A model generated the notes under the pieces. It made no database searches and had not been told where the DNA came from. It saw nothing but the letters and a program-made list of their open reading frames with translations. This document shows positions 55 to 33,429 of a DNA stretch of 34,485 nt, piece after piece. The position numbers and the translations under genes were made by a program. Origin of the DNA: a virus (taxonomy: Duplodnaviria; Heunggongvirae; Uroviricota; Caudoviricetes); the IMG/VR virus record IMGVR_UViG_2531839587_000015. One strand, given 5' to 3'. Positions within the stretch are counted from its first letter, which is position 1. Every line of letters begins with the position of its first letter.

Positions 55-206
55 TGGGAAAGATAAGAATAAAATCAAAGCAATAAGCAGTGTCGTGAAA
101 CCACCTTCGGGGGGGTTTTTTGTATTTGTATTTTGTGCAATGGCGGTGGAGTGGCGATGGTGTGGCGATATGCAGAAACAATAGTAGTGCACGTGCTGTT
201 TAAACT

Positions 207-254
207 CTAAGGATGAAGCCGAATTCTCCTGCAGCTCCTCCGTATTTCGCATAG
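207..254 (-). pseudogene. Hok-family toxin remnant: only the C-terminal ...LCEIR... codons remain; about 130 nt including the start codon are missing relative to the copy at 1067-1207
   Basis: Minus-strand translation gives LCEIRRSCRRIRLHP*. Flanking DNA aligns with the 3' end of the intact hok at 1100-1140, and the adjacent leader (255-365) aligns with 1255-1380. Confidence 0.5.
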
Positions 255-365
255 TGAACTAGGACCTCGGTTAAACAAAAATTTTTCTGGGATTTTTCCA
301 CTCGACTTCATTTTTCCTCCTGCCATCCACCAAAAGGTACCTGCGCTAATCTGTCTTTTTTAATC
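255..365 (-). repeat. hok/sok-like leader region, copy A (homologous to 1255-1380)
   Basis: Shared blocks cctcggttaaaca, tttccac, cctcc..ccatc..cc.aaagg.acc..cgc.taatct...tttttt with the region upstream of the intact hok ORF. Confidence 0.55.
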
Positions 366-593
366 TGACAACATCCTGAGAAAAGGCAAAATCGTCAGAT
401 TTACTGTTTTTCTGCTGCCTCGAATGCCGATGTCTGCAGCACTGATAAGAGCTCTATCTCTTTGATATAGATCTTTTTTTTGATGAATTGCACGGCATAT
501 TATCGTTATGACACCTTCTTGTTAAAGGTGTTGTACTCCACATCTCGATTTTATGATGTGGGTTATGATTGGTTAGTAATAGAGTGTATCGGT

Positions 594-875
594 ATGCGAT
601 GTGGTTTATTAATGGCAATCTGTTTTTGTTTGGTATCTTTTAGTGGGTATGCAGCAACAGGAAAGTCTGATGCTCAGATCAAGAAAGAAATAATTAAAGA
701 ATCCATTGAATCGTATCCAGGCAATTGTGCGTGTCCTTATAATCATGCAAGGAATGGTAGTAGATGTGGTAGACGCAGTGCATATAGCCGTACTGGAGGG
801 TATGACGTGGTATGTTATGAGAGTGATGTTACGGATGAAATGATCCGGCAATGGAAGCAGGAGAATGCTGAGTAA
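594..875 (+). CDS. Small secreted Cys-rich protein (signal peptide MRCGLLMAICFCLVSFSGYAA; motif CACPYNHARNGSRCGRRSAY resembling YHYH-type proteins); AT-rich gene
   Basis: ORF 480-875 in the track. An internal Met at 594 begins a typical signal peptide; the 38 residues before it look non-native. Low-GC coding sequence. Confidence 0.55.
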   Translation: MRCGLLMAICFCLVSFSGYAATGKSDAQIKKEIIKESIESYPGNCACPYNHARNGSRCGRRSAYSRTGGYDVVCYESDVTDEMIRQWKQENAE

Positions 876-952
876 TCACTTTTAACTGGTTTGTTTTGCG
901 AGCATTATGTGTGTTGTTAACGGTACCCTAGCTAAGTGAGAGCTCCAAAAGA

Positions 953-985
953 AAACCCGCAGTTTTTACGCTGCGGGTTTTCTTG
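953..985. terminator. Bidirectional rho-independent terminator (cccgcag / ctgcggg stem flanked by A-run and T-run)
   Basis: Hairpin aaaacccgcag-tttttacg-ctgcgggttttc lies between the convergent + strand gene ending at 875 and the - strand hok ending at 1067. Confidence 0.65.
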
Positions 986-1066
986 TTTGTGTCCATGGGA
1001 TAGGGTGCCACTTCGGCCAGCCTTAGCAACCGATTGACGGGGGATTGCTCCCCCGTCGCGGTTTCC

Positions 1067-1207
1067 TTACTGCTTACACTGTAAGAACGCCGCAAACTCC
1101 GCTCCCCAGAAGCTCATCCGTATTTCACACAGCGAACCGTGCAGCATCCAGATGATGAGGATTACCGTCACGCAGAACGTGATGGCCATAAGCGATTTTT
1201 GCGACAT
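1067..1207 (-). CDS. Hok/Gef-family type I toxin, 46 aa (MSQKSLMAITFCVTVILIIWMLHGSLCEIRMSFWGAEFAAFLQCKQ)
   Basis: Own translation; absent from the ORF track because it is under 60 aa. Single TM helix plus the conserved SLCE(I/L)R and AAFLxCK motifs of HokA-like toxins. AAGGAG Shine-Dalgarno 10 nt upstream. Confidence 0.75.
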   Translation of the reverse strand: MSQKSLMAITFCVTVILIIWMLHGSLCEIRMSFWGAEFAAFLQCKQ

Positions 1208-1254
1208 AGCGCTTGCTCCTTTTTTGGGGAGGCGCTAACCTATCACTTGCTAAG

Positions 1255-1385
1255 GTTAGATGGTCAGGGCCTCGGTTAAACAGAAATGTTTTCCGGGGCC
1301 TTTCCACATCTGGCCTTCGGGTATTCCCTCCAGCCATCAGCCGAAAGGCACCCGCGCGTAATCTATCGCTTTTTTGTTACTCCGG
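1255..1385 (-). repeat. hok/sok-like leader region, copy B (mok/sok/translational-activation region upstream of intact hok)
   Basis: Homologous to 255-365. The SD region is embedded in a GC-rich pairing context typical of hok mRNAs. Confidence 0.5.
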
Positions 1386-1397
1386 CAATTCAGCCTG

Positions 1398-1658
1398 TTA
1401 ATTCTGAGGTAAGGGCAAACTCATTTGGTTGTTTCCCCTGTGCGAAGCTGGCAGCTCATTCCACGGGATGCCCTCTGAAGAGTGAACGCCTGGGGCGTGT
1501 TTCGATGTGAATTTATGGAAAGCCTCCAGTGTTGAGAAGCATACGCCGCATTCCAGGTTGTTACACTGGTAATATTTTTTCCGCACGGTATCTGAATCAT
1601 TTTCCGAACGACTGGTGCGGATACGGGCAGATGCGCCACAAAGCGGACAACGAAACAT
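1398..1658 (-). CDS. ogr: Ogr-like zinc-finger late-gene transcription activator
   Basis: MFRCPLCGASARIRTSR...YYQCNNLECGVCF shows the CxxC...CxxxxC pattern and N-terminal similarity to P2 Ogr. GGGAGG SD 5 nt upstream of the ATG. Confidence 0.85.
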   Translation of the reverse strand: MFRCPLCGASARIRTSRSENDSDTVRKKYYQCNNLECGVCFSTLEAFHKFTSKHAPGVHSSEGIPWNELPASHRGNNQMSLPLPQN

Positions 1659-1761
1659 AGCGACCTCCCTTAACGTAGTACTGTCGCTAGTTTAGGCTGA
1701 ACTTACTCAGACTCCAACTGATAGTTCGCTTTGTTTACTGATGCCGTAGAAAGGTCTCTTA

Positions 1762-1792
1762 GCAAGAATAACCCCAGTTTAACACTGGGGTT
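1762..1792 (-). terminator. Rho-independent terminator downstream of the moron gene (ccccagt / actgggg stem, U-run on the minus strand)
   Basis: Hairpin aaccccagtttaacactggggtt followed on the minus strand by uuauucuug. Confidence 0.6.
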
Positions 1793-1807
1793 GCTTGCAA
1801 CAGAGCG

Positions 1808-2461
1808 TCAATTTTTAAGAGCGCCGATACAGAAAAATTGCATGACATTTTTCTTTATTGATTTAAATAGGCTAAATATTGTGATAGGTCTAAAGCTAGT
1901 CAACTCGCTGAATTCTTTTCTCATTTGGGAAAGTAACTGCCGACGTACTGATTCAATTTCTGCTGTTTGAGCTCTCAAATATCTTGAGAAATCAAGTAGT
2001 TCATCAGCTGTTTTGTTTTGGCTATTTATAAACGTAACAGGTTGCCCTGGCTTAGATATGAGAAAGAATTGATCAATTTTATCAAGTAATGGTGGAATTA
2101 TTTGTTTCCATTCAGCCCATTCTTTTTCACGATGAAACTCCAGGCTGTGCTGACATGCTCTGAGTTGCTGTATATCAATCGCCCAGACCTCACTCTCATC
2201 GAGGCAATCTTTCCATTTGCTAATTACATTAATGTCAAATTTTTTGTTCGGTCGATAATCTTCTTTGGCGCGCGCTTCCAGTATAGAGGCAAGGCTACCT
2301 GTATATTGCATCAAATTGGTAGATGCTCGGTTTACTAGCTCAGATATTCGATCTAGTTGAGTTGTTCTAATCTCAAGTGCTTTCTTTTTACGTTCATTTC
2401 GTAAAGCAAAATATGCAGCAAGGCAGACTGCAGCAACTGTGGCTGCTGGTTGCATATTCAT
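1808..2461 (-). CDS. Moron: membrane-anchored hypothetical protein, 217 aa (N-terminal TM helix QPAATVAAVCLAAYFAL + KKK, then a soluble alpha-rich domain); AT-rich
   Basis: ORF 1808-2485 in the track. Start placed at the Met at 2461, which has an AGGA SD 8 nt upstream. Lies between ogr and D, where P2 has no gene. GC clearly lower than the flanking phage genes. Confidence 0.6.
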   Translation of the reverse strand: MNMQPAATVAAVCLAAYFALRNERKKKALEIRTTQLDRISELVNRASTNLMQYTGSLASILEARAKEDYRPNKKFDINVISKWKDCLDESEVWAIDIQQLRACQHSLEFHREKEWAEWKQIIPPLLDKIDQFFLISKPGQPVTFINSQNKTADELLDFSRYLRAQTAEIESVRRQLLSQMRKEFSELTSFRPITIFSLFKSIKKNVMQFFCIGALKN

Positions 2462-2655
2462 AACATGGATCCTCTGACATGGCATTTATGGGCGCTATTT
2501 CAGCAGTAATCATTTGTGTGTAAATTTGTTTGCTACAAATTAACATATTCTAATGTAAGGTACTTCTGATTTTGACACTTGGTAGGCTGTCAGATTGGTT
2601 ATGATTCTTGCTGTAGGCGCGTTAACAAATGTCAGGGCTAATGCATCTAAGTTGT

Positions 2656-3753
2656 TTACTCTGTTTCTGCTATCCATTCCGGGATTTTTGCTTCAAGCTC
2701 AAGCTGAGTGGTAAAGCCGCTGTTGTCAATGGTGTGCTCGGCTTTTGCAATAATCCAGTCCTGATTGTCAATGTCACTTTTGAAGCCTGTCACCGTGCCA
2801 TGCATTTCGGGATAGAGTTCTGCACGTCCACACGCCAGCGTGATGGAGAACGCTGCGGCTCCGCGTTGTAGCTGCTGCCACTTTGCCGCCGCTGCACGTC
2901 TTGCTGCCTGCTCGTTCTGATAAGTCTTGCGTAACACAAACACGTTGCCTTCCGCGCCTTCCATATAGTCGCCTTCCCGGCTGCTGCTTTTCTCCTTTTT
3001 CGGTTTGCGGCGTTTCACGCTGACTTTTTTCTTTTTCCCGTAATTAAGATCAAGCCAGTAGGCGCGTACACCCGTATACGCCTCGCGGTCAGCAATGCGG
3101 AACTGATGGCGATCGCCGCTGCTGCGTGTGATGGCAACGATGGCAAGGCTGGCCCTGTGCGTTCACGCCACCGCCGGCATGATGAATAACAGATTACCGC
3201 TTTTTACCGTGGTGATTGCGCCCAGCATTTCCGCCATGCGCGTAAGGAAGGACATGTCGCTTTCTTCAGTCTGGTCGGCGTGGTCGATTTCGATATCCAT
3301 CAGCATTTCGCTGATTTGCGGTTTCAGACCATACCGATGAGCGATGGCGGATACCACACGCTCAATGGTCACATCATGCCAGGACACCTCACGTTTAACG
3401 TTAAATTCATCCCGAAAATCTGCGCTTCTGGCTGAAACAGTCAGCCTGTCCGGCGGTCCTTCGTGAGCGATTTCATCAACAATGTAAGTGCCTTTTTCTG
3501 TCAGCGGTTCTCCTTTCCAGCCAATGAGAACCGTCAGGCGCGCGCCCCGTGGCGGTAGCTGCAACTGACCATCCGCATCATCCAGCGTGATGGTGAGCTG
3601 GTCCGCTTCAAATCCCCGGTTGTCGGTCAGTGACAGGCTCATCAGGCGCTCTGCCACGCCGGACAGCGTTTTCCCCTCCGCGAGAATATCAAAATCCGGC
3701 ATTTTCACGGGGTCTGTGCTCTGACTGAGCAATTGCATGGTGGTGTCGGTCAT
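2656..3753 (-). pseudogene. D: gpD tail protein (P2 D homolog) interrupted by a single in-frame TGA at 3163-3165
   Basis: Track ORFs 3163-3774 and 2656-3018 are in the same frame. The stretch between them translates without stops (THRASLAIVAITRSSGDRHQFRIADREAYTGV...) and matches gpD on both sides. Start placed at the Met at 3753 with a GGGAGGG SD. Confidence 0.8.
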
Positions 3754-15399: not shown

Positions 15400-15705
15400 G
15401 GCTTCACGCAGGGAATCAGTTTCAGCATGGTTGTTATCCTCGTTGTTCAGTCGTTGCAGCCTGCGCTGTTCCAGTAATTCAATGGCCCGTTTATCAGCGT
15501 TACAGGTTTCCAGTGCATCCAGAAGGCGGTCGCCCCATATACCGAGATTTCCCCATGTGGGAGTATCAGGGAAGGGGGGAGGCGTTACCGGTATGGTCAG
15601 CGTCTGCGGTATAAGCCGGACTGACGGCGCTGGCAGTGGCGCGTTCTGCGTGCCTGCGCAGCCTGTCAGTAAAACGAGCGTCAGGCAAAGCGTGGGCGCA
15701 TTCAT
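15400..15705 (-). CDS. lysC: LysC-like o-spanin lipoprotein (Rz1 analog), embedded in lysB in another frame; its reading frame continues into R without a stop
   Basis: MNAPTLCLTLVLLTGCAGTQ is a lipoprotein signal with lipobox, followed by a Pro-rich segment. No stop codon before the R coding region. Confidence 0.55.
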
Positions 15706-25614: not shown

Positions 25615-25730
25615 CGTTTACGGGATTCTGAAATCCCGTTTTTGCCTGTTTTGTGCGCGCTTCATATAGCGCTGCGCGTTTTTTGCTCATTTACGGGATT
25701 CGTGAGTCCCGTTTCTGTCTGTTTTTTGTT
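25615..25730. repeat. Two copies of a roughly 42-bp repeat, each with the palindrome ACGGGA-N8-TCCCGT followed by a T-rich tract, separated by a GC hairpin; candidate parC centromere/operator or replication-associated site
   Basis: Copy 1 at 25615-25655 (intergenic, upstream of parM); copy 2 at 25687-25730 (inside the last codons of A). Palindromes acgggattctgaaatcccgt and acgggattcgtgagtcccgt. Confidence 0.7.
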
Positions 25731-28484
25731 TCCACTGGTCAGGCCACCCCGCAGCAGGTCTGCTTTGCGGCTGGCGCGTTCAGTGGTTTCACTGATTCTC
25801 TGTGCGTGCTCTGCGTCGCGGATGGCGCGCAGCATGTCAGAAAGCACGGTAACGGGTGTTTTCATGGTGTTCTGGTCCTGCTGAAGTGTGGATGCCAGGC
25901 GTGCGGCGGCTTCAGGGTCTGATGCCCCCAGCTGTGCCAGATAGCTGGCGACCGGGTTATGGCGGATCTCCGTGCTGCTTACGCCATGATTACGGCTCAG
26001 ACGCTGCCAGAGCTGCGTGATTCGGCTGTCCGGGCGGGTATCCGGTTTGCGTACAATTTCAAATCCCTGCGGTGCAATGATGCTGCCGTCAACGTACAGA
26101 CTGCCGCCCCGTAACAGGTGCTGCATCTGTTGTTCACCGATATGCAGGCCGAGAGAATCAGCAGACTCCCGCCATTCTTTAGCGAGTAACTCGTGGTTAT
26201 CAGGCAAAGGCCGCTGCTGTTTGCGGCTCTGTGTCCAGTTCTGCATTTCATCGCTGCTGTTTTTTGCCTGTTTGTCACGAAGCGAACGCATCAGCGCCCG
26301 GCGTTCGTGCCGTTTCAGTGAGCGCATCCATTCATTTACTTCAACGCCGTCAGGAAGCTGCGGCCACGGTGCTGGCCGTTCTTCCGGCTGTTCTGTCCCG
26401 TTGTTGCCTGTTTCCTGTACACGGGGACAGTTATTGCCACGAGTCCAAGGGGCGGCAGGGCCGCCCTGAAGGTCAAAACCATTTTCGCGGGCGCTGTCTT
26501 CCGCTTCCGGTTTACGTCTTACCAGCTTCCAGTTATCCGGATGTGTGCACACACGGGAAGACTCCCCGATGAGTGGTGACCAGATCCCGTAAATCTGTAC
26601 GCTCTGTTCGCCGTAATCGTTCAGCTCATCTGCGAGGTCGTAGGCGGTGCGAATCAGGTAGTCTTGGCGTGGAACAAGTACGCCGCCCTGTTTCTCTATG
26701 TAGGAGGCAAAACACCCGGCATCAGCGGCAGCGAGCACTGCATCCATTGCGTCATCCTTCAGCCGTTGCGGGCCTTCCGGGTTGCGTGCCATCTGGCTGG
26801 CAAGGCGGCGCAGTTCACGCCACACCTGACGGGAGGGGATGCCAAAGAACTGGAACTGGCGGACCCGGTGAAGGCGCGCCCAGCCGATGGCGCGCTCCAC
26901 GCTCTCGGCCATTGATTTTCCGGTTTCGTGGTCAACGCGTGGCTTGCCCGTTTTCGGGTCGATACCATCCACGGCGCGGCTGTCCAGGTTCTTTCCGATG
27001 TAGGTGGCGATGTAGCTGGTCGGTGTGCCTTTTGAGCCGTCGACGTACTCTGCCTTAAAGCGTGGGGTAATATCATCACCCAGCTCGTGACGATCTTCCT
27101 GAATGGCAATATCGCGGGTGTGGGACACAATGGTGTCGATTTCTTCCGGATGAGCAAAGACCATCATATGCCAGTGCACGGTGCCGTCATGGTGAGGCTC
27201 CACCGTGCGGATGCCATACCAGCGCAGGCCGTCGCGGTTCAGTTTCTTGCGGACCGCCGCAAAAAACGAGTTAACCAGGTAATCGCTGGAGTCGCGCATA
27301 GTGGCCCCGTTCCATTTGGGATTCGGATGACCGTTCTCCGTTGTTGCGTGGTATTTTGACGGGCAGGTGACAGTCAGAAACACCGCTCTGTCGCCACGGG
27401 CTTCGGCCAGAAGTTCCAGCCCCTTCATGGTGGCCATCATTTCTGCCTTACGGTGAACCGGGTTACTTACTCCCGCGTAATACACTGTCTCAAGATCAAT
27501 CGTGAACCCGTCTTCGTTTTCCAGCATGAAACTTTTCAGGAAATCGCGTGTTTTCTCGCGCTGTGCGCGAAACTCGCTTAACGCATCCTGGCTCAGATAG
27601 GGCGATGTTTTTCTGGAAACCAGACAGGCGGCGCGGAGTTGTTCTTCTCTCCACTCGCAACGTAACAGCCACAGTTTGCGTTTCCACCATTCCGCACAGG
27701 TCAGGCGAAGGATTGCGCCCGGCAGCAGCTCCGTGTCTGGTTCGTTCCTCCGGCCTTTGTCTGTTGTCAGTGCGTCATAATGCGGAGGCATGGCGTGCAG
27801 GTGTAACGCCATGCGGGCCAGCATCTGATACGCCTTCAGCGTTACATCCATGGTCAGCTCGCCATCAGTCGCACCAAAGCCATCGCAGAGTTTTTCGAAG
27901 GTGCTGCTGAACATCGCCGCCGTCATGGTGGCCAGCGTCTGTATCTGGTGTTTGTTGAGCTGCGGCAGGTAAAGCAAATCGTCCAGGCGTTCGCGTCCGG
28001 CAAGGGAGCGATAACCCGGTGTCAGCCAGTGTCCGTCAGTGCGATCCAGACGTTCGAATATTTTGCGCAGGGTTCCGCGTGCATAGCGTTCTGCCTGCCA
28101 GCTCTTTTTGCCTTTCCGGCGATCGACTTCCTGTTTTTTGCGCAGGAAGGAGAGGTGGCGAATAAGCGGATCGCGCAGATAGGACGGCAGCAGGCGCAGC
28201 GAGGCCATGGCTTCATCCACCGCGCCGCGTGCCTGTCTTCTGGCGTCTCCTGCCAGCGTGATGGTTTTGTCCTGTTTTTCCTGTGCGTCCAGGCTTTTAT
28301 TAATCAGGTTGCCCAGTGGCGTGGCAGAGAACGCCGCATCAGCCTTTTCCTGTCGGCGCTCGTTCTCTGCCTGGTAGGCATCCAGCCAGGAGGAAAGCGC
28401 GGATTCAGGTGCGGGGATCCCCGTTCCTTCACGCCCCACTGCGTGGCGCGGTTGTTGCCAGTCCCTGATGTACTCTGTCGTCAT
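25662..28484 (-). CDS. A: gpA-like rolling-circle replication initiation endonuclease (940 aa)
   Basis: HUH-like HWHMMVF motif and the two-tyrosine active-site motif SYIATYIGKN, as in P2 A. Larger than P2 A (761 aa). Confidence 0.85.
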   Translation of the reverse strand: MTTEYIRDWQQPRHAVGREGTGIPAPESALSSWLDAYQAENERRQEKADAAFSATPLGNLINKSLDAQEKQDKTITLAGDARRQARGAVDEAMASLRLLPSYLRDPLIRHLSFLRKKQEVDRRKGKKSWQAERYARGTLRKIFERLDRTDGHWLTPGYRSLAGRERLDDLLYLPQLNKHQIQTLATMTAAMFSSTFEKLCDGFGATDGELTMDVTLKAYQMLARMALHLHAMPPHYDALTTDKGRRNEPDTELLPGAILRLTCAEWWKRKLWLLRCEWREEQLRAACLVSRKTSPYLSQDALSEFRAQREKTRDFLKSFMLENEDGFTIDLETVYYAGVSNPVHRKAEMMATMKGLELLAEARGDRAVFLTVTCPSKYHATTENGHPNPKWNGATMRDSSDYLVNSFFAAVRKKLNRDGLRWYGIRTVEPHHDGTVHWHMMVFAHPEEIDTIVSHTRDIAIQEDRHELGDDITPRFKAEYVDGSKGTPTSYIATYIGKNLDSRAVDGIDPKTGKPRVDHETGKSMAESVERAIGWARLHRVRQFQFFGIPSRQVWRELRRLASQMARNPEGPQRLKDDAMDAVLAAADAGCFASYIEKQGGVLVPRQDYLIRTAYDLADELNDYGEQSVQIYGIWSPLIGESSRVCTHPDNWKLVRRKPEAEDSARENGFDLQGGPAAPWTRGNNCPRVQETGNNGTEQPEERPAPWPQLPDGVEVNEWMRSLKRHERRALMRSLRDKQAKNSSDEMQNWTQSRKQQRPLPDNHELLAKEWRESADSLGLHIGEQQMQHLLRGGSLYVDGSIIAPQGFEIVRKPDTRPDSRITQLWQRLSRNHGVSSTEIRHNPVASYLAQLGASDPEAAARLASTLQQDQNTMKTPVTVLSDMLRAIRDAEHAQRISETTERASRKADLLRGGLTSGNKKQTETGLTNPVNEQKTRSAI

Positions 28485-28928: not shown

Positions 28929-29159
28929 TTAATGGAGTTTGTTTTGCTGCTGGATGAGCTGCTGAAGCTCGCGCAGATCATCCGCCAGATAACTGAAAAC
29001 AGCGGATGAGTAGAGGTTTGAAAGTTCGCAGCTACGCTCATGCAGCATATTGATGTGCATGATTTTAGCGACGCGGAATGCGCGGGAAAGTCTGCGGTTG
29101 ATTTCAGTCTGGATGTGACGACGCTCCGCGATAGCGCGGTGCTGTTTGCGGTTTGCCAT
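28929..29159 (-). CDS. Hypothetical basic protein (76 aa)
   Basis: ORF with ATG. Follows a 370-nt structured non-coding region. Confidence 0.45.
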   Translation of the reverse strand: MANRKQHRAIAERRHIQTEINRRLSRAFRVAKIMHINMLHERSCELSNLYSSAVFSYLADDLRELQQLIQQQNKLH

Positions 29160-29336
29160 GGTGTGGCCTCTTTGGTTGTAAGTTTTGAAAACTCACCATC
29201 CAGAGCTGCGAAACTGTGGGTGGCGAGACGTACGGGGTTCGCAGTACCGGCAACCAAAGAACCCGGCCCGACCGAAGTCGGCCCCGTACGCCCCGCCATA
29301 ATTCTGACGCGAAAAAAACGTGGCAATACAGTACGC

Positions 29337-29360
29337 ACAAAAAAACCGCTGGCGCGGTTG
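29337..29360 (-). terminator. Rho-independent terminator inside the 29160-29526 non-coding region
   Basis: Minus strand reads aaccgc-gcca-gcgguu followed by uuuuuuu. Confidence 0.6.
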
Positions 29361-29526
29361 TGCGCTTTGGTTGTCAGCAGGCTGCGAAACCCGGCACCCG
29401 TTTTATGAGGTGCAGCGAAAATGTAACCTGACTGATTGCGGCATGGCAAGCGGTTTTTTTGTGAGAACGGCATACTAAAAAATCCTGATACTGCTCCGGC
29501 CAGCGGTTTGCACTGGCCGGGTGTCA

Positions 29527-30357
29527 TTACTTCACGGGAACGAACGGAACAGCGGGGTTACTGGTCATGTATTGCGGCAGCGTGCCGTTCCATTTGTTGA
29601 TTGCTTCCAGCTCCATAACGCCGGGATTCTGGCGCAGAGCTTCGCCGCGTAAACGAATGGCGTCGGCTTCAGCCTGGGCTTTTGTGCGAATGGCATCGGC
29701 CTGTCCGGCAGCTTCTGCGCGCAACATGTTGGCTTCTGCTTCGCGCTGCTTGACTTCCTGTTCGCGTTGCAGGGTTTTCTGGTTTGCCGTGACTTTGGCG
29801 TTAATGCTGTCGATAACGGTTGGCGGATATTCCGGTTTACCGACATAAGAGAGGCTCATGACCTGAATACCGATGGGGGTCATCTCTTCCTGAATATCTT
29901 TAAGTGCTGAATCCAGCAGTTCAGACTTACCACCGTCGATAAACTTATCGGTGGTCATTTTGCTGGCCAGTCGGTTGAGTGCATCGGCGATCTTCTGGCG
30001 CAGGTCAGTGTCGGTAATGTCGTCCACGCCTTTGCGGTAGGTCTGAAACACCGTGGTAACTTTGGATGGATCAACTTTGTAGGCCACGCCGATGTGATAG
30101 CCGATGGTTGTGCCGTCACTCATCTGGAAGTTGAACGGCTCATCGTAACTCTTCATTTGTTTGAAGGTCGGGAAGATGTAAACCTCTGTATTCCAGCCTG
30201 TCCAGTAGCGGCCAACGCCAACCACTTCACCGACGCCTTTGTCGTCGCCCAGTTTGTTGACTTTGATGCCCACATTACCTGGCTCAACGCGATCGCAACC
30301 AACCAGCAGGATGGCGGCAAAAAGCGGGAGAATCTGAAAGAGTCTGAATTTCTTCAT
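29527..30357 (-). CDS. SPFH/Band-7 (prohibitin/stomatin-like) lipoprotein, 276 aa
   Basis: Lipoprotein signal with LVGC lipobox, SPFH-like core, and a C-terminal Ala/Glu/Arg-rich coiled-coil (..QREAEANMLRAEAAGQADAIRTKAQAEADAIRLRGEA..). Confidence 0.75.
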   Translation of the reverse strand: MKKFRLFQILPLFAAILLVGCDRVEPGNVGIKVNKLGDDKGVGEVVGVGRYWTGWNTEVYIFPTFKQMKSYDEPFNFQMSDGTTIGYHIGVAYKVDPSKVTTVFQTYRKGVDDITDTDLRQKIADALNRLASKMTTDKFIDGGKSELLDSALKDIQEEMTPIGIQVMSLSYVGKPEYPPTVIDSINAKVTANQKTLQREQEVKQREAEANMLRAEAAGQADAIRTKAQAEADAIRLRGEALRQNPGVMELEAINKWNGTLPQYMTSNPAVPFVPVK

Positions 30358-30557
30358 TGTTTGATTTCCTTGATGTACTTACTGAAAAGGCGAACAACGC
30401 CTGCCGGGTACAGCATGGCAATGAAAATTCCCAGCAATACCAGGAAGGAGCTGTCTGATGAAATCATTCGGGGGAGTAGTCCTGCATACAGAATGAGAGA
30501 GACGAGGACGCATACCAGCGCCCACATGTATGCGCGAAACCAGGTCTTTTTGTTCAT
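30354..30557 (-). CDS. Small two-TM membrane protein (67 aa), translationally coupled to the SPFH gene (ATGA overlap)
   Basis: Two hydrophobic helices. Its stop overlaps the SPFH start. Confidence 0.6.
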   Translation of the reverse strand: MNKKTWFRAYMWALVCVLVSLILYAGLLPRMISSDSSFLVLLGIFIAMLYPAGVVRLFSKYIKEIKQ

Positions 30558-30568
30558 ATCGCGGTCCT

Positions 30569-30868
30569 TTACTGGTTAAGGAAAAAATCGAAAACGTTGT
30601 CGATGCGTTGCAGCAGCTCCTGCTGCATTGCTTCCGGCGTTTCTGATTCACCTGGTGACTCCAGCGTCGCGCAAAAATCCTTGATTTCATGATGGAGCGT
30701 CAGACGAATGGCAGGAGCCATGGTTCTGGCGTGCTCCAGCTCATCCAGCAGTGCCAGCACGGCAGATGGCGAGAGCATTGCGCGAAACGCCAGTAATTTT
30801 TGATGCGTTGCCATTCGTTGCAGGTCAGTCGCCAGTTCGCGTAATTCCTGGTGGTTGATGGCGCTCAT
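30569..30868 (-). CDS. Hypothetical protein (99 aa)
   Basis: ORF in the early operon. Confidence 0.5.
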   Translation of the reverse strand: MSAINHQELRELATDLQRMATHQKLLAFRAMLSPSAVLALLDELEHARTMAPAIRLTLHHEIKDFCATLESPGESETPEAMQQELLQRIDNVFDFFLNQ

Positions 30869-31131
30869 GCTCTGGCTTCCTTCAGTAGCAGGTTAAACAT
30901 GTGAGTAAGTGGATTGCTACACCCGAACGGCATCGGGTTTACGTGGTAAGAAGCCTGGCCTCCTGCTTTGCGAGCGCGACCACCTGTGCTGCGGTTTGTT
31001 CTGATGACTAAGCCGCCGCGCCAGAGTCGGCGTAACTCAGCATTGATGGCTGTGGTTGGGGTATTCAGTGCTGCGGCGATTTCTCCGCCGCTACAACCCG
31101 GATGGGTAGCGATGTAGTCCAGAATGGTCAT
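30865..31131 (-). CDS. Putative small winged-helix DNA-binding protein (88 aa)
   Basis: GGEIAAALNTPTTAINAELRRLWRGGLV resembles a wHTH recognition segment. Confidence 0.45.
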   Translation of the reverse strand: MTILDYIATHPGCSGGEIAAALNTPTTAINAELRRLWRGGLVIRTNRSTGGRARKAGGQASYHVNPMPFGCSNPLTHMFNLLLKEARA

Positions 31132-31331
31132 CTGCGTGACTCCTGTACCTGTCGGATAAGGTTCACCCGCACCACATTCGTGGCGCAGAAGTAAGTGCCG
31201 TCAGTGAGATAGATGTGATGTGCATCCTTTTCCGAACGATGTTTGTCGATAGTGGTAATCAGTCGTTCGTCGACCTCGTATTCGCGGTCTCTGGAGGTGA
31301 AGCGAACGACAGGAAAATGCTTAATTGCCAT
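31128..31331 (-). CDS. Hypothetical protein (67 aa)
   Basis: ORF overlapping its neighbours by 4 nt, suggesting translational coupling. Confidence 0.45.
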   Translation of the reverse strand: MAIKHFPVVRFTSRDREYEVDERLITTIDKHRSEKDAHHIYLTDGTYFCATNVVRVNLIRQVQESRR

Positions 31332-31648
31332 TACACCCTCTTGGCTTTATGTCTGTATTTGAGCTTTTCTATTTCTTCTTTTTGTTCTTTTAATGTTCTT
31401 ATGGCTGTGAAAACATTAAAGCCCATAAAATGTGCTCTGTTCGCTAATGTAATACTGGCACCTTTGTTAGCTATATCATCTTCAATATCAGTGAAATACT
31501 GACTGATTTCTTTTAGTGCGGCGCAAAGCTTTGCGAGATCTCGCCCCCTGTCAAAATATGCATCCTTCAGTATTTTTTGATTTGTCCTGAGCATGCTAAC
31601 CTCGTGTTTATATATATGGATACCTCCGCGAGTGCGGATTGTTTTCAT
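31331..31648 (-). CDS. Hypothetical protein (105 aa) with basic C-terminus, in an AT-rich insert
   Basis: ORF. Markedly AT-rich DNA compared with the neighbouring genes. Confidence 0.5.
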   Translation of the reverse strand: MKTIRTRGGIHIYKHEVSMLRTNQKILKDAYFDRGRDLAKLCAALKEISQYFTDIEDDIANKGASITLANRAHFMGFNVFTAIRTLKEQKEEIEKLKYRHKAKRV

Positions 31649-31683
31649 GTTTTCTTATTTAATCGTGTGTTTTATTTGTGCTG

Positions 31684-31797
31684 TTATTCTTCAGTGAAAA
31701 AACGCTCAATCTTTTTTACTGAATGAATAATTCGCATAATCCCAATAGCGCAGGCCACCGAAATAATCAGAACAAGCCATGAGATAAATATACTCAT
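31684..31797 (-). CDS. 37-aa single-TM membrane peptide (MSIFISWLVLIISVACAIGIMRIIHSVKKIERFFTEE), not in the ORF track
   Basis: Own translation. ATG overlaps the stop of the upstream 81-aa gene (ATGA). GGGGAA SD-like sequence upstream. AT-rich. Confidence 0.5.
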   Translation of the reverse strand: MSIFISWLVLIISVACAIGIMRIIHSVKKIERFFTEE

Positions 31798-32039
31798 GCG
31801 ATATTCCCCAGCTTATACGGTTCAATATGTTCCCCGCATTCTGCGGCACAGATCAGCTCGGAAAGTTCGTTAAGTGCATCCAGATCATCAGCGTAAAAAG
31901 CCACGTCATACAGACTTCGGATTGCTCTGGTCAATGAGTCACGGGCCGCACGTTCAGCATGAGCGCCTGATGCACTTAAGCGAAAATAAAAACGCTCAAG
32001 TGCTTTGTTAATGAGAGTTTTATATTCTTTGCCCATCAC
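31794..32039 (-). CDS. Hypothetical protein (81 aa)
   Basis: ORF. Its stop overlaps the start of the 37-aa peptide gene. Confidence 0.5.
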   Translation of the reverse strand: MMGKEYKTLINKALERFYFRLSASGAHAERAARDSLTRAIRSLYDVAFYADDLDALNELSELICAAECGEHIEPYKLGNIA

Positions 32040-32047
32040 AACGCCCT

Positions 32048-32335
32048 TTAATCTGCTTTCTGTATTTCAGCTTCTGAATCCATACAAATAATTTCGATAT
32101 AGGGTTCATCGCCATTAACCTGGCGTGCCTTTTCAGCTTCGCTAATGATTTCTCGTACGGTCTGGTACGGAAGTTCCACAAGCAGCCGTGTGCCGTTCAG
32201 ATAAATGTAAGTGGCTTCAGCGGCTCCGTTTTTACCCGCCGGAGTCACTCCATCAATAGCGGATACGCGTAATAACAGTTCACCGCGAAAATCAATAAAA
32301 CGGATAAATACACCTTGTGCATGCTCTTTGGTCAT
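32048..32335 (-). CDS. Hypothetical early protein (95 aa from the internal Met MTKEHAQGVF...)
   Basis: Track ORF 32048-32395. Start placed at the Met with an AGGTG SD, which avoids overlap with the upstream gene. Confidence 0.45.
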   Translation of the reverse strand: MTKEHAQGVFIRFIDFRGELLLRVSAIDGVTPAGKNGAAEATYIYLNGTRLLVELPYQTVREIISEAEKARQVNGDEPYIEIICMDSEAEIQKAD

Positions 32336-32345
32336 AAAGCACCTG

Positions 32346-32687
32346 TTATAAATCAGCCTGTTTAATAAAACTTTGCCCACGAAGCAGACGATCAACCGTG
32401 CGAAGTGCTTCGTATAATGTGAAATCCTGTCCGAACTGATTGTCGCCGCTGCTTAGTGCAAAAATGCGGTTTCCGGTAAACGGATTGCGTGGGCATTTGT
32501 GGACTACGATTCCAGCTTTCTCAATCAGCCAGGCATGCTCGCCGATTTGTTTTGCTGGGTAGCCATCCGGTGTTGCGTGTGTATCACTCAGGCTGTAGCG
32601 GATGTTGCTGCGTGATGCACTGGTAGCGAAACGGTTGGCGTGGCGTTCAGCACCATTACGAAAGCGTGAATTACGTTGCTGTTTCAT
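32346..32687 (-). CDS. Hypothetical early protein (113 aa), first gene after cox
   Basis: ORF in the position of P2 orf78/B. Confidence 0.45.
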   Translation of the reverse strand: MKQQRNSRFRNGAERHANRFATSASRSNIRYSLSDTHATPDGYPAKQIGEHAWLIEKAGIVVHKCPRNPFTGNRIFALSSGDNQFGQDFTLYEALRTVDRLLRGQSFIKQADL

Positions 32688-32705
32688 ATCAAAACTCCCT
32701 GCATC

Positions 32706-33032
32706 TCATGCAGCAAAATTAAGAAAGCCTAATCCCAAATCTTCCGCCAGCTTCTTGGCTTTATTAAGCCAGTGATTGCGCCAATCTTTACGCTCAGGAG
32801 GAAGTTGTTTCGTTGCGTCATAGACCATTTCGAGCCACTCGTTCCATAGGATGAGAAGGCGGCGTGAACTTCCTTCCTCGCCTAAAACTTCACGCTCAGT
32901 GGCCAGAGGGATGAGCCGACGTTCCACCAACTTTCTTACGGCTGATTCGGTCTTGCCCGTGCGGCGGGCAAATTCATCGACGGGGATGGGGTCTGGGATC
33001 TTAAACAATGCCCTCAATAGTTCTTCATTCAT
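32706..33032 (-). CDS. cox: Cox-like excisionase / early transcriptional regulator
   Basis: ..IPVDEFARRTGKTESAVRKLVERRLIPLA...W..W.. resembles P2 Cox. Divergent from C. Confidence 0.75.
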   Translation of the reverse strand: MNEELLRALFKIPDPIPVDEFARRTGKTESAVRKLVERRLIPLATEREVLGEEGSSRRLLILWNEWLEMVYDATKQLPPERKDWRNHWLNKAKKLAEDLGLGFLNFAA

Positions 33033-33126
33033 GTGATAATCTCCCTGTTTGGGGTATAGGTGAGATATTTACCCCATAGTTCAACTCATTGTTTGCATAA
33101 TGCACTACATATTTGGAGAATGCAAT
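33033..33126. promoter_or_regulatory. Divergent early promoter/operator region between cox (Pe) and C (Pc)
   Basis: Position between divergent cox and C as in the P2 immunity switch. Short inverted repeat ggggta...tacccc. No promoter elements assigned with confidence. Confidence 0.45.
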
Positions 33127-33429
33127 ATGATTTTGGAGATTGGTGAAAAACTAAAACTAATGCGTGAAAGTGAGCGCATTACAAGTCGCAATGAGGCTGC
33201 GGAGTTAATAGGTATTCCGCATAACGCGCTATGGCGTTATGAGACTGGCGAATCCATACCCAAAGGGGATGTAATGATGAAAATCTTAAATTGCCCGCGG
33301 TTCGAAAAATATGCCTTGTGGTTTATGACTGGAAAAATTGCGCCTGAATCCGGGCAGGTAGCTCCGGCTCTCGCACACTATGGGCAAGAGCCAACGGACT
33401 TACCCCCATCCGAAAGGAAAATTGGTTAA
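33127..33429 (+). CDS. C: C immunity repressor
   Basis: ..KLKLMRESE....L..L.G.P...L..YE.G.S.P..DVMMKIL..P.F.KY.LWFMTGKIAPESGQVAPALAHYGQ closely matches the recalled P2 C repressor. Confidence 0.85.
   Translation: MILEIGEKLKLMRESERITSRNEAAELIGIPHNALWRYETGESIPKGDVMMKILNCPRFEKYALWFMTGKIAPESGQVAPALAHYGQEPTDLPPSERKIG

Follow-up and report, generated by a model that had tools for sequence, protein, structure and literature searches.

A 37-residue membrane-peptide gene coupled to DUF4754 in the early operon of a P88-type prophage, beside a slot of exchangeable cargo

The window analysed here is the whole 34,485-nucleotide (nt) stretch of the viral record IMGVR_UViG_2531839587_000015, and the element in question is a 37-codon open reading frame (ORF) on its minus strand. 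We are highly confident that this frame is a real and conserved gene for a membrane peptide, paired with the DUF4754 gene upstream of it. The two form a conserved two-gene module joined by an ATGA overlap. The peptide gene is a core gene of the phage backbone with a low guanine-plus-cytosine (GC) content, and the ORF that follows it, termed the cargo gene below, is a separate, rare gene in a swappable slot. An invariant hairpin marks one edge of this slot, and the ribosome-binding site of the next backbone gene, orf67, marks the other. The features on which the main finding rests are as follows.

31684-31797, minus strand: gene for the 37-residue membrane peptide, MSIFISWLVLIISVACAIGIMRIIHSVKKIERFFTEE, fifth gene of the early operon (cox-to-GpA)
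31794-31797, minus strand: ATGA overlap of the peptide start and the DUF4754 stop, from the sequence
31805-31809, minus strand: GGGGA, a weak Shine-Dalgarno-like motif within the DUF4754 coding region, 7 nt ahead of the ATG of the peptide
31794-32036, minus strand: DUF4754 gene of the early operon, 80 residues from ATG; RefSeq WP_000514277.1, Pfam PF15946

A preliminary description, made from the letters of the window alone, had proposed a 37-residue ORF at 31684-31797 with a single transmembrane (TM) helix and a charged tail, an ATG overlapping the stop of an upstream 81-residue ORF, a basic 105-residue ORF downstream, and a place in the early operon. These structural claims were borne out. 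Translation of the minus strand reproduces MSIFISWLVLIISVACAIGIMRIIHSVKKIERFFTEE, the ATGA overlap is read directly at the junction, the downstream ORF (31331-31648) has an isoelectric point (pI) of 9.85, and the peptide gene is the fifth cistron of the cox-to-GpA operon. Residues 3-21 of the peptide form the most hydrophobic 19-residue window among the 121 ATG-initiated ORFs of 30-60 codons in the six frames (-2.9 by simple summation on the Hessa scale). A TM helix is predicted at approximately residues 2-24, followed by a short charged tail, leaving about 13 residues outside the membrane. The charges cited (R22, K28, K29 and R32) all lie past the helix. Since charges occur only after the helix, positive-inside reasoning predicts an N-terminus out and a C-terminus in. 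The GC content is 0.34 in the peptide gene, 0.29 in the intergenic stretch and 0.36-0.37 in the cargo, against 0.53 for the whole window.

Related DNA was gathered from about 110 loci, comprising 80 IMG/VR contigs, one Escherichia albertii genome, annotated phages and genomes, and further contigs to which diverged proteins of the DUF4754, cargo and peptide families had led. In the first 85 loci, the 37-codon frame was intact in 76, extended to 45 codons in eight (by a one-base deletion within a T6 or A6 run, with the tail alone altered) and truncated in one. The 45-codon alleles, seen in L105-type loci and IMG/VR contigs, have their loss in the T6 run at codons 32-34 or in the A6 run at codons 27-29, and the last residues are replaced by SLANNRANKTTG-like tails. 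Across all of the roughly 110 loci, the peptide frame could be read wherever its position could be located, and the patchy presence typical of a moron gene was not found. Distant lineages encode 41-residue versions, such as MNIFISWLILIISVLCAIGIVRIIDSVKDIESLFTGEKRRK in L092 and MNIFISWLILILAIICAVGIMRIINSIKTIESLFTGDKRHK in L111. A gene is called at the position in most of these distant loci; in L099 and L100 the frame is intact but the call is fused into a frameshifted DUF4754, and in L092 and L104 there is no call.

Substitution patterns carry the case for selection on the protein. Between the window and the deep lineages, the proportion of synonymous differences (pS) in the peptide gene was 0.61-0.79, near saturation, and that of non-synonymous differences (pN) was 0.15-0.24. 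In the saturated comparisons of the peptide frame, pS was about 0.78 versus a pN of about 0.22. Where synonymous sites were unsaturated, the ratio of non-synonymous to synonymous substitution rates (dN/dS) was 0.10-0.14 in the peptide frame and approximately 0.6-5.6 in the other two frames. The comparison with L092 alone yielded 15 synonymous and 13 non-synonymous differences (binomial P = 4e-4), and the synonymous excess had binomial P values of 1e-4 to 6e-3 over four comparisons, which share lineages and are thus non-independent. Variable sites numbered 12, 5 and 23 at codon positions 1, 2 and 3. In L114, pN from the window was 0.47 for DUF4754 and 0.22 for the peptide, the latter corresponding to approximately 60-70% amino-acid identity. 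Because the substitutions are coding-like in the peptide frame only, the lack of frame conservation that the preliminary description had named as grounds for abandoning the gene was not found; synonymous and non-synonymous changes are clearly distinct.

The upstream partner is an ORF of 81 residues from GTG 32039, or of 80 residues from ATG 32036 as in the RefSeq annotation. It matches Pfam PF15946 (DUF4754) with E = 2.9e-54 and 181.7 bits, against a gathering cut-off of 27. AlphaFold2 predicts an acidic (pI 5.3) three-helix bundle with a predicted local distance difference test score (pLDDT) of 89, and fold and sequence searches of the PDB returned no significant match. Word-indexed matches to DUF4754 all carry Escherichia, Shigella or Salmonella names, nearly all at 71% identity or above. 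DUF4754 and the peptide always co-occur and the ATGA overlap is always present, the deepest lineages included; in L092, L111 and L114 it is retained despite saturated synonymous sites. In L114, the pair stands directly after cox, with DUF4761 and the 95-residue gene (orf95) absent. A purine-rich, Shine-Dalgarno-like motif recurs 5-7 nt upstream of the peptide start across lineages, as GGGAG in L092 and GAGGG in L111 and L114. DUF4754 proteins of 103-128 residues were considered as natural fusions of DUF4754 with the peptide and were rejected: they are rare frameshifted or mis-started calls, mostly in the wrong frame.

Of 5426 complete E. coli genomes, 1334 carry the 114-nt peptide gene, which was annotated in each sampled match. 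The preliminary description had called the peptide unannotated, which does not hold. It is already RefSeq WP_001363442.1, in strain 99-3165, whose genome is 99.8% identical to the window over a 1301-nt region, and a further RefSeq record of the family is WP_000021652.1. In phage P88 the 'membrane protein' gp07 (YP_009113050.1) is 97% identical to the peptide and occupies the same place after DUF4754. The label is 'putative membrane protein' in phage 569R5 and 'Prophage membrane protein' for the UniRef cluster members, with the exact window peptide on 418 contigs. Homologues were sought by tblastn against phages, an exact cluster look-up, a HMMER scan and a search with the 41-residue variant. 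The tblastn search, which the preliminary description had recommended, did find same-family matches in other phages, and the family was also present in Salmonella and Shigella records, a Citrobacter rodentium phage and E. albertii. A filter-only HMMER scan of 1.84 billion representatives gave eight matches at E<=1e-3, all to the same peptide family. The peptide had no match in Pfam, PHROGs, PADLOC or NCBIfam. An apparent distant homologue at 59% identity in phage 503458 was set aside, as the region is full of indels and uninformative. A search of the literature yielded no paper that deals with DUF4754, the peptide sequence or the peptide's accession numbers, and in the main text of two E. coli ribosome-profiling (Ribo-seq) papers no P88-type prophage is mentioned. 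The peptide family is therefore already catalogued, and small single-pass membrane proteins are a familiar product of phage early operons. Strain 99-3165 was also one of the loci compared (L101, NZ_CP029981.1, 1792000-1828500). Its prophage has an identical early region and is degraded, with pseudogenes for capsid, terminase, baseplate and replication endonuclease; the DUF4754, peptide and cargo genes are intact.

The window is an E. coli prophage of the P2 family and P88 type (genus Xuanwuvirus, Peduoviridae). Phage P88 itself came from an induction (PMC5285337). Its first 25 kb are 96-97% identical to phages 520873, 500465-2 and P88, and its right end is a typical P2 switch region, with the order integrase, helix-turn-helix (HTH) repressor, Cox, the operon bearing the peptide, and then GpA. 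The surrounding genes are listed here from the right end of the window; those nearest to the slot are given further below.

33463 onward, plus strand: integrase ORF of the switch region, running off the window end
33100-33429, plus strand: HTH repressor of the switch region
32706-33032, minus strand: Cox, switch region
32346-32687, minus strand: DUF4761 gene, early operon
32048-32335, minus strand: 95-residue gene (orf95), early operon
30865-31131, minus strand: MarR-type winged-helix protein, early operon
30569-30868, minus strand: Ead/Ea22-like protein, early operon
30354-30557, minus strand: 67-residue membrane protein, phrog_1130, early operon
29527-30357, minus strand: SPFH/Band-7 lipoprotein, 276 residues, early operon
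25662-28484, minus strand: replication protein GpA, further down the operon
15408-16706: lysis cassette with holin, M15 endolysin, DUF2570 and LysC genes, approximately 15 kb from the peptide gene

A second membrane-directed gene pair is found in the same operon, where the 67-residue membrane protein (phrog_1130) is ATGA-coupled to the SPFH/Band-7 lipoprotein (29527-30557, minus strand); the P88 counterpart of the SPFH protein is annotated 'lipoprotein / serine protease'. Further along the minus strand, Rfam matches above the gathering score were obtained for C4 antisense RNA (87 bits) and isrK (66 bits) at 29216-29303 and 29339-29413. These lie just upstream of a 76-residue 'Derepression' family gene (28929-29159, PF25738), an arrangement with a likeness to a P1 immI-like or anti-repressor control module, here within a P2-type phage. 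At the far end of the prophage, window positions ~1026-1689 share 93% DNA identity with an annotated region carrying a Hok/Gef family gene and an ogr/Delta-like zinc-finger gene.

The conservation of the peptide extends to individual residues. Twelve positions are invariant in 20 peptide variants (M1, S6, W7, L10, I11, G19, I23, I24, K28, I30, E31 and F34), and residue identity, beyond hydrophobicity, is kept along the whole helix while DUF4754 drifts to a pN of 0.45-0.7. Positions with at least three residues cluster on one helical face (resultant 0.51 versus 0.21 at random, P ~0.008, from 20 variants in a test designed after viewing the data). In P2, the early operon is repressed by C, and the same is assumed for the P88-type window. 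On this basis, the peptide would be made once the C repressor is off the early promoter, during infection or induction and not in a stable lysogen, and would be translated by termination-reinitiation after DUF4754. It would then insert in the inner membrane, N-terminus out and C-terminus in, and use one conserved face of its helix to bind a larger membrane protein or another copy of itself during early host takeover; it may act together with DUF4754. With the operon thus behind an early promoter that is probably C-repressed, the lysogen would be the wrong state for the Ribo-seq experiment proposed in the preliminary description.

A specific membrane interaction is favoured by the residue conservation along the helix and the variability on one face, together with the points against a toxin, lysis or exclusion role considered below. 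From the pattern of substitutions we tentatively suggest that the peptide acts as a specific-packing regulator, like the small bacterial regulators of membrane proteins, a proposal that we give a real but less than even chance. The joint explanation, in which a core early-operon gene forms a module with DUF4754, the cargo is separate, and the product is an inner-membrane packing peptide of the lytic phase, we judge to stand at even chances of being correct. A bolder version is speculative and in our judgement quite unlikely: that DUF4754 and the peptide constitute a two-part early module disabling a host target in the inner membrane (for instance a protein of cell division, a transporter or receptor, or a defence effector bound to the membrane), with the hairpin marking the site of a counter-defence cassette.

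An alternative that gives the peptide a smaller part, and which we consider unlikely, is that its sole job is to hold the DUF4754 bundle at the inner membrane, where DUF4754 would perform an early function. The gene order and ATGA overlap, invariant in all lineages and in minimal operons too, are consistent with such a tether. Coupling favours about equal production of both proteins at one site, the conserved hydrophobic face of the peptide tail (V27, I30 and F34) could dock a soluble partner, and DUF4754 is, by confident prediction, a small helical bundle without another recognisable function. However, DUF4754 diverges strongly (to the pN given above) while the peptide barely changes, and close peptides are paired with DUF4754 alleles at synonymous distances (dS) of 0.5-0.7, which is unusual for tightly co-evolving partners. 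Moreover, the membrane span is as conserved as the tail, and this would be unneeded in a passive anchor.

It is also doubtful that the peptide damages the membrane, oligomerising so as to depolarise or permeabilise the inner membrane as a toxin, a lysis-timing, exclusion or abortive factor. The preliminary description had noted a likeness to toxin, lysis-modulating or exclusion peptides, and part of this is evident. The peptide has the size of a type I toxin (37 residues with one strongly hydrophobic 19-residue window), its single TM helix and charged C-terminal tail are the architecture of pore-forming toxins and holins, small residues at S13, A17 and G19 could support self-association, and the same operon has the 67-residue membrane protein and the SPFH lipoprotein. 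The likeness went no further than architecture. Rfam gave no match at 31300-32100 at E<=1, and a sequence-based scan of the plus strand over 30800-33200 gave no promoter-like site and only a weak 5-bp hairpin with a T-run. Promoter-like matches inside the operon numbered one (32011-31983), against 3.5 expected by chance. No independent transcription unit was found for the peptide gene, whose start overlaps the preceding stop and which, as the fifth gene, is coupled inside a polycistronic operon and does not stand alone. The peptide matched no toxin, holin or defence profile. Nor is the gene placed in a late lysis cassette, lying in the early operon 15 kb off, and for lysis the phage encodes a separate holin, endolysin and spanin at 15408-16706, besides the Hok/Gef-type region at ~1026-1689. 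A position behind a repressed early promoter, if P2 is a guide, argues against an exclusion role in the lysogen, and the exact residues are kept more strictly than a pore former would usually require.

Five observations weigh against the joint explanation, or against parts of it. The Shine-Dalgarno motif of the peptide gene is weak. The 45-codon allele occurs in 8 of 85 loci, at least one of them in a recent NCBI assembly, which suggests that the last residues of the peptide are dispensable or that some copies are decaying; as this assembly contains 13 similar places, the allele is probably more than a sequencing error. In closer lineages (the window against L087 and L102), the peptide gene has a dS of 0.13-0.21 whereas that of DUF4754 is 0.5-0.7. 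This gap indicates either recombination mosaicism, with a breakpoint close to the ATGA junction, or a further constraint that acts on the nucleotides of the peptide gene. The helical-face test was post hoc. Lastly, expression of the peptide in the lytic phase only is an expectation drawn from P2 biology. Two of these points, the weak motif and the frameshifted alleles, would also suit a chance ORF in T-rich sequence or a mere translated spacer that keeps ribosomes on the mRNA, as would the ease with which AT-rich DNA yields hydrophobic ORFs, of which there are several other small ones in the window. Nevertheless, a chance origin is very improbable: the synonymous excess is confined to the peptide frame, approximately 60-70% amino-acid identity is kept despite saturated synonymous sites and a far more diverged neighbour gene, and the length, start and overlap are conserved.

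The region downstream of the peptide gene behaves differently. The features involved are given first, followed by a census, over the same 85 loci, of the distance from the peptide stop to the start of the 67-residue gene.

31623-31640, minus strand: hairpin element AATCCGCACTCGCGGAGG, a 5-bp GC stem TCCGC/GCGGA with a 4-nt loop, then GG; left edge of the variable slot
~31346-31619, minus strand: true insertion relative to empty-slot phages (e.g. P88), ~274 nt, GC 0.36, from alignment with P88, O111 strain 12A and 569R5
31331-31648, minus strand: cargo gene, 87 or 105 residues, early operon
31128-31331, minus strand: orf67, 67-residue backbone gene, phrog_3459; right anchor of the variable slot
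Distance of 61-87 nt: empty slot, 45/85 loci
Distance of 352 nt: window-type cargo, 10/85 loci
Distance of 502-842 nt: larger cargo, with the ORFs examined unrelated to the 105-residue gene, 30/85 loci

The window is collinear with P88 and the O111 prophage through the peptide gene, the conserved intergenic stretch and the element AATCCGCAYTCGCGGAGGTAT, and they diverge after AATCCGCAYTCGCGGAGGTAT. The window and the empty-slot phages rejoin at GCCAAG(G)AGG..TAATG, just before orf67, whose ribosome-binding site is within this conserved right flank; in empty-slot phages orf67 directly follows the hairpin element. The slots looked at were those of L003, L005, L087-L100, L111 and L114. Larger cargo includes a 137-residue family (phrog_9338), sometimes followed by a gene of 110-135 residues (phrog_16975), and the L092 slot holds a 92-residue gene. 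Slot cargo did not match the defence and anti-defence profiles. P2-like phages have hotspots for accessory genes, the main ones being near the cos site (GpA to GpQ) and in the tail genes (PMC9122126; PMC13586616). The slot beside the peptide gene resembles these in its conserved anchors and exchangeable content. Unlike the published hotspots, it holds single small genes with no defence-profile match, in an operon that the lysogen is expected not to express.

The cargo ORF encodes 105 residues from ATG 31648 (pI 9.85) or 87 residues from ATG 31594 (pI 9.63), and its stop overlaps the orf67 start (TAATG). It was present in only 18 of the 5426 complete E. coli genomes, all at 99% identity or above and several of them O6:H16 strains, and its relatives come from E. 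coli only, at no less than 85% identity. Its occurrence is thus patchy, as in a moron gene, in genomes (18/5426) and in the census (10/85 loci). A dN/dS of 0.13-0.37 indicates purifying selection. AlphaFold2 gives two long antiparallel helices at residues 2-43 and 50-86, a predicted hairpin with a pLDDT of 75; a fold search of BFVD had no match at E<=1e-3 and a sequence search of the PDB found nothing. Among Pfam, PHROGs, PADLOC and NCBIfam profiles it matched phrog_21900 only. Annotations of its start are split between the two forms, with the 87-residue form on more contigs. The first 18 codons of the long form cross the conserved hairpin element; in empty-slot phages this element does not code for protein, and ATGTAA, GTG, CTG or CAG stands at the position of the long start. 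The N-terminal extension is open in all 20 cargo-bearing loci, beginning with ATG or GTG. A good ribosome-binding site (GAGG) is present at the internal ATG 31594 only, and the 87-residue form is somewhat more likely to be the true product.

These boundaries alter the extent of the insertion. In the preliminary description, 31331-32039 was one AT-rich insert; the low GC content of that stretch stands, but only ~31346-31619 is inserted, and the peptide gene occurs in all relatives. Nor are the peptide and the 105-residue ORF one acquired unit, being present in 1334 and 18 of 5426 genomes, respectively, with other phages empty or carrying unrelated genes at the position of the latter. Although the two genes adjoin each other and share a low GC content (0.34 and 0.37), it is extremely improbable that the whole block is one horizontally acquired cassette of a peptide effector with the basic protein as partner or antidote, given this difference in genome counts, the 45 of 85 slots that are empty and the 30 with other, longer content whose examined ORFs are unrelated, and an insertion boundary that falls downstream of both the peptide gene and the conserved hairpin.

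The hairpin element is itself strongly conserved. Its core, ATCCGCA-N3-GCGGAGG, is identical in six aligned lineages (the window, L004, L087, L092, L111 and L114), including those with saturated synonymous sites. It is present in one copy in the window. The stem never varies, which leaves no room for covariation. An A-rich tract precedes the hairpin on the sense strand, so it is weakly terminator-like on the plus (antisense) strand only, where a T-run comes after the 5-bp stem. The local RNA fold around it is ordinary (z = -1.56). A repeated operator was rejected on the grounds of the single copy, a match count equalled in 29/100 shuffles and the ordinary fold. A hydrophobic antisense ORF across the element (plus strand, 31593-31697) was also discarded: in-frame stops occur among alleles, the frame changes in the deep lineages, and its start is not conserved. 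Candidate roles of the hairpin are as a signal for the processing or stability of RNA, as a terminator of antisense transcription or as a site bound by a protein.

What is new here is that the peptide is recognised as a selected core gene locked to DUF4754 and is told apart from the rare cargo, and that the cargo start is ambiguous and the slot is bounded by an invariant hairpin. The immediate practical value is in annotation: the peptide gene is genuine and belongs to the core, the cargo gene has an ambiguous start, and the insert is the cargo only. The peptide gene is carried by approximately a quarter of complete E. coli genomes, among them enterotoxigenic E. coli (ETEC) and O157 strains. 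If the peptide does target a host membrane protein, it would join the few phage peptides that expose vulnerable host functions, and the slot would be a defined place to seek early counter-defence genes of P2-like phages. Should the two-part module be correct as well, the locus would be a compact source of new anti-defence and host-takeover proteins.

Among known systems, the nearest records (P88 gp07, WP_001363442.1 and WP_000021652.1) belong to the same family and carry a name only. Type I toxins (Hok/Gef, Ldr, TisB, Ibs, ShoB, DinQ and ZorO) are likewise small, hydrophobic, single-helix peptides, and in Hok, too, translation is coupled to that of an upstream frame. The peptide differs from them in being the fifth cistron of a long operon, with no antisense RNA, promoter of its own or homology. 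SPO1 Gp56, a division inhibitor, and phi29 p16.7, a replication organiser, are early phage proteins anchored by one N-terminal TM helix. The anchor is alike; however, these proteins are 80-130 residues long with functional soluble domains, whereas no more than about 13 residues of the peptide lie outside the membrane. The small bacterial inner-membrane regulators of the AcrZ, MgrB, MgtS, PmrR and SgrT class are shorter than 50 residues, with a single TM helix and a short charged tail. The peptide has no sequence relation to them and, unlike them, is phage-encoded in an early lytic operon. A length of at most 50 residues, a single TM helix and a conserved helix face (post hoc P ~0.008) are shared, a likeness of functional class only.

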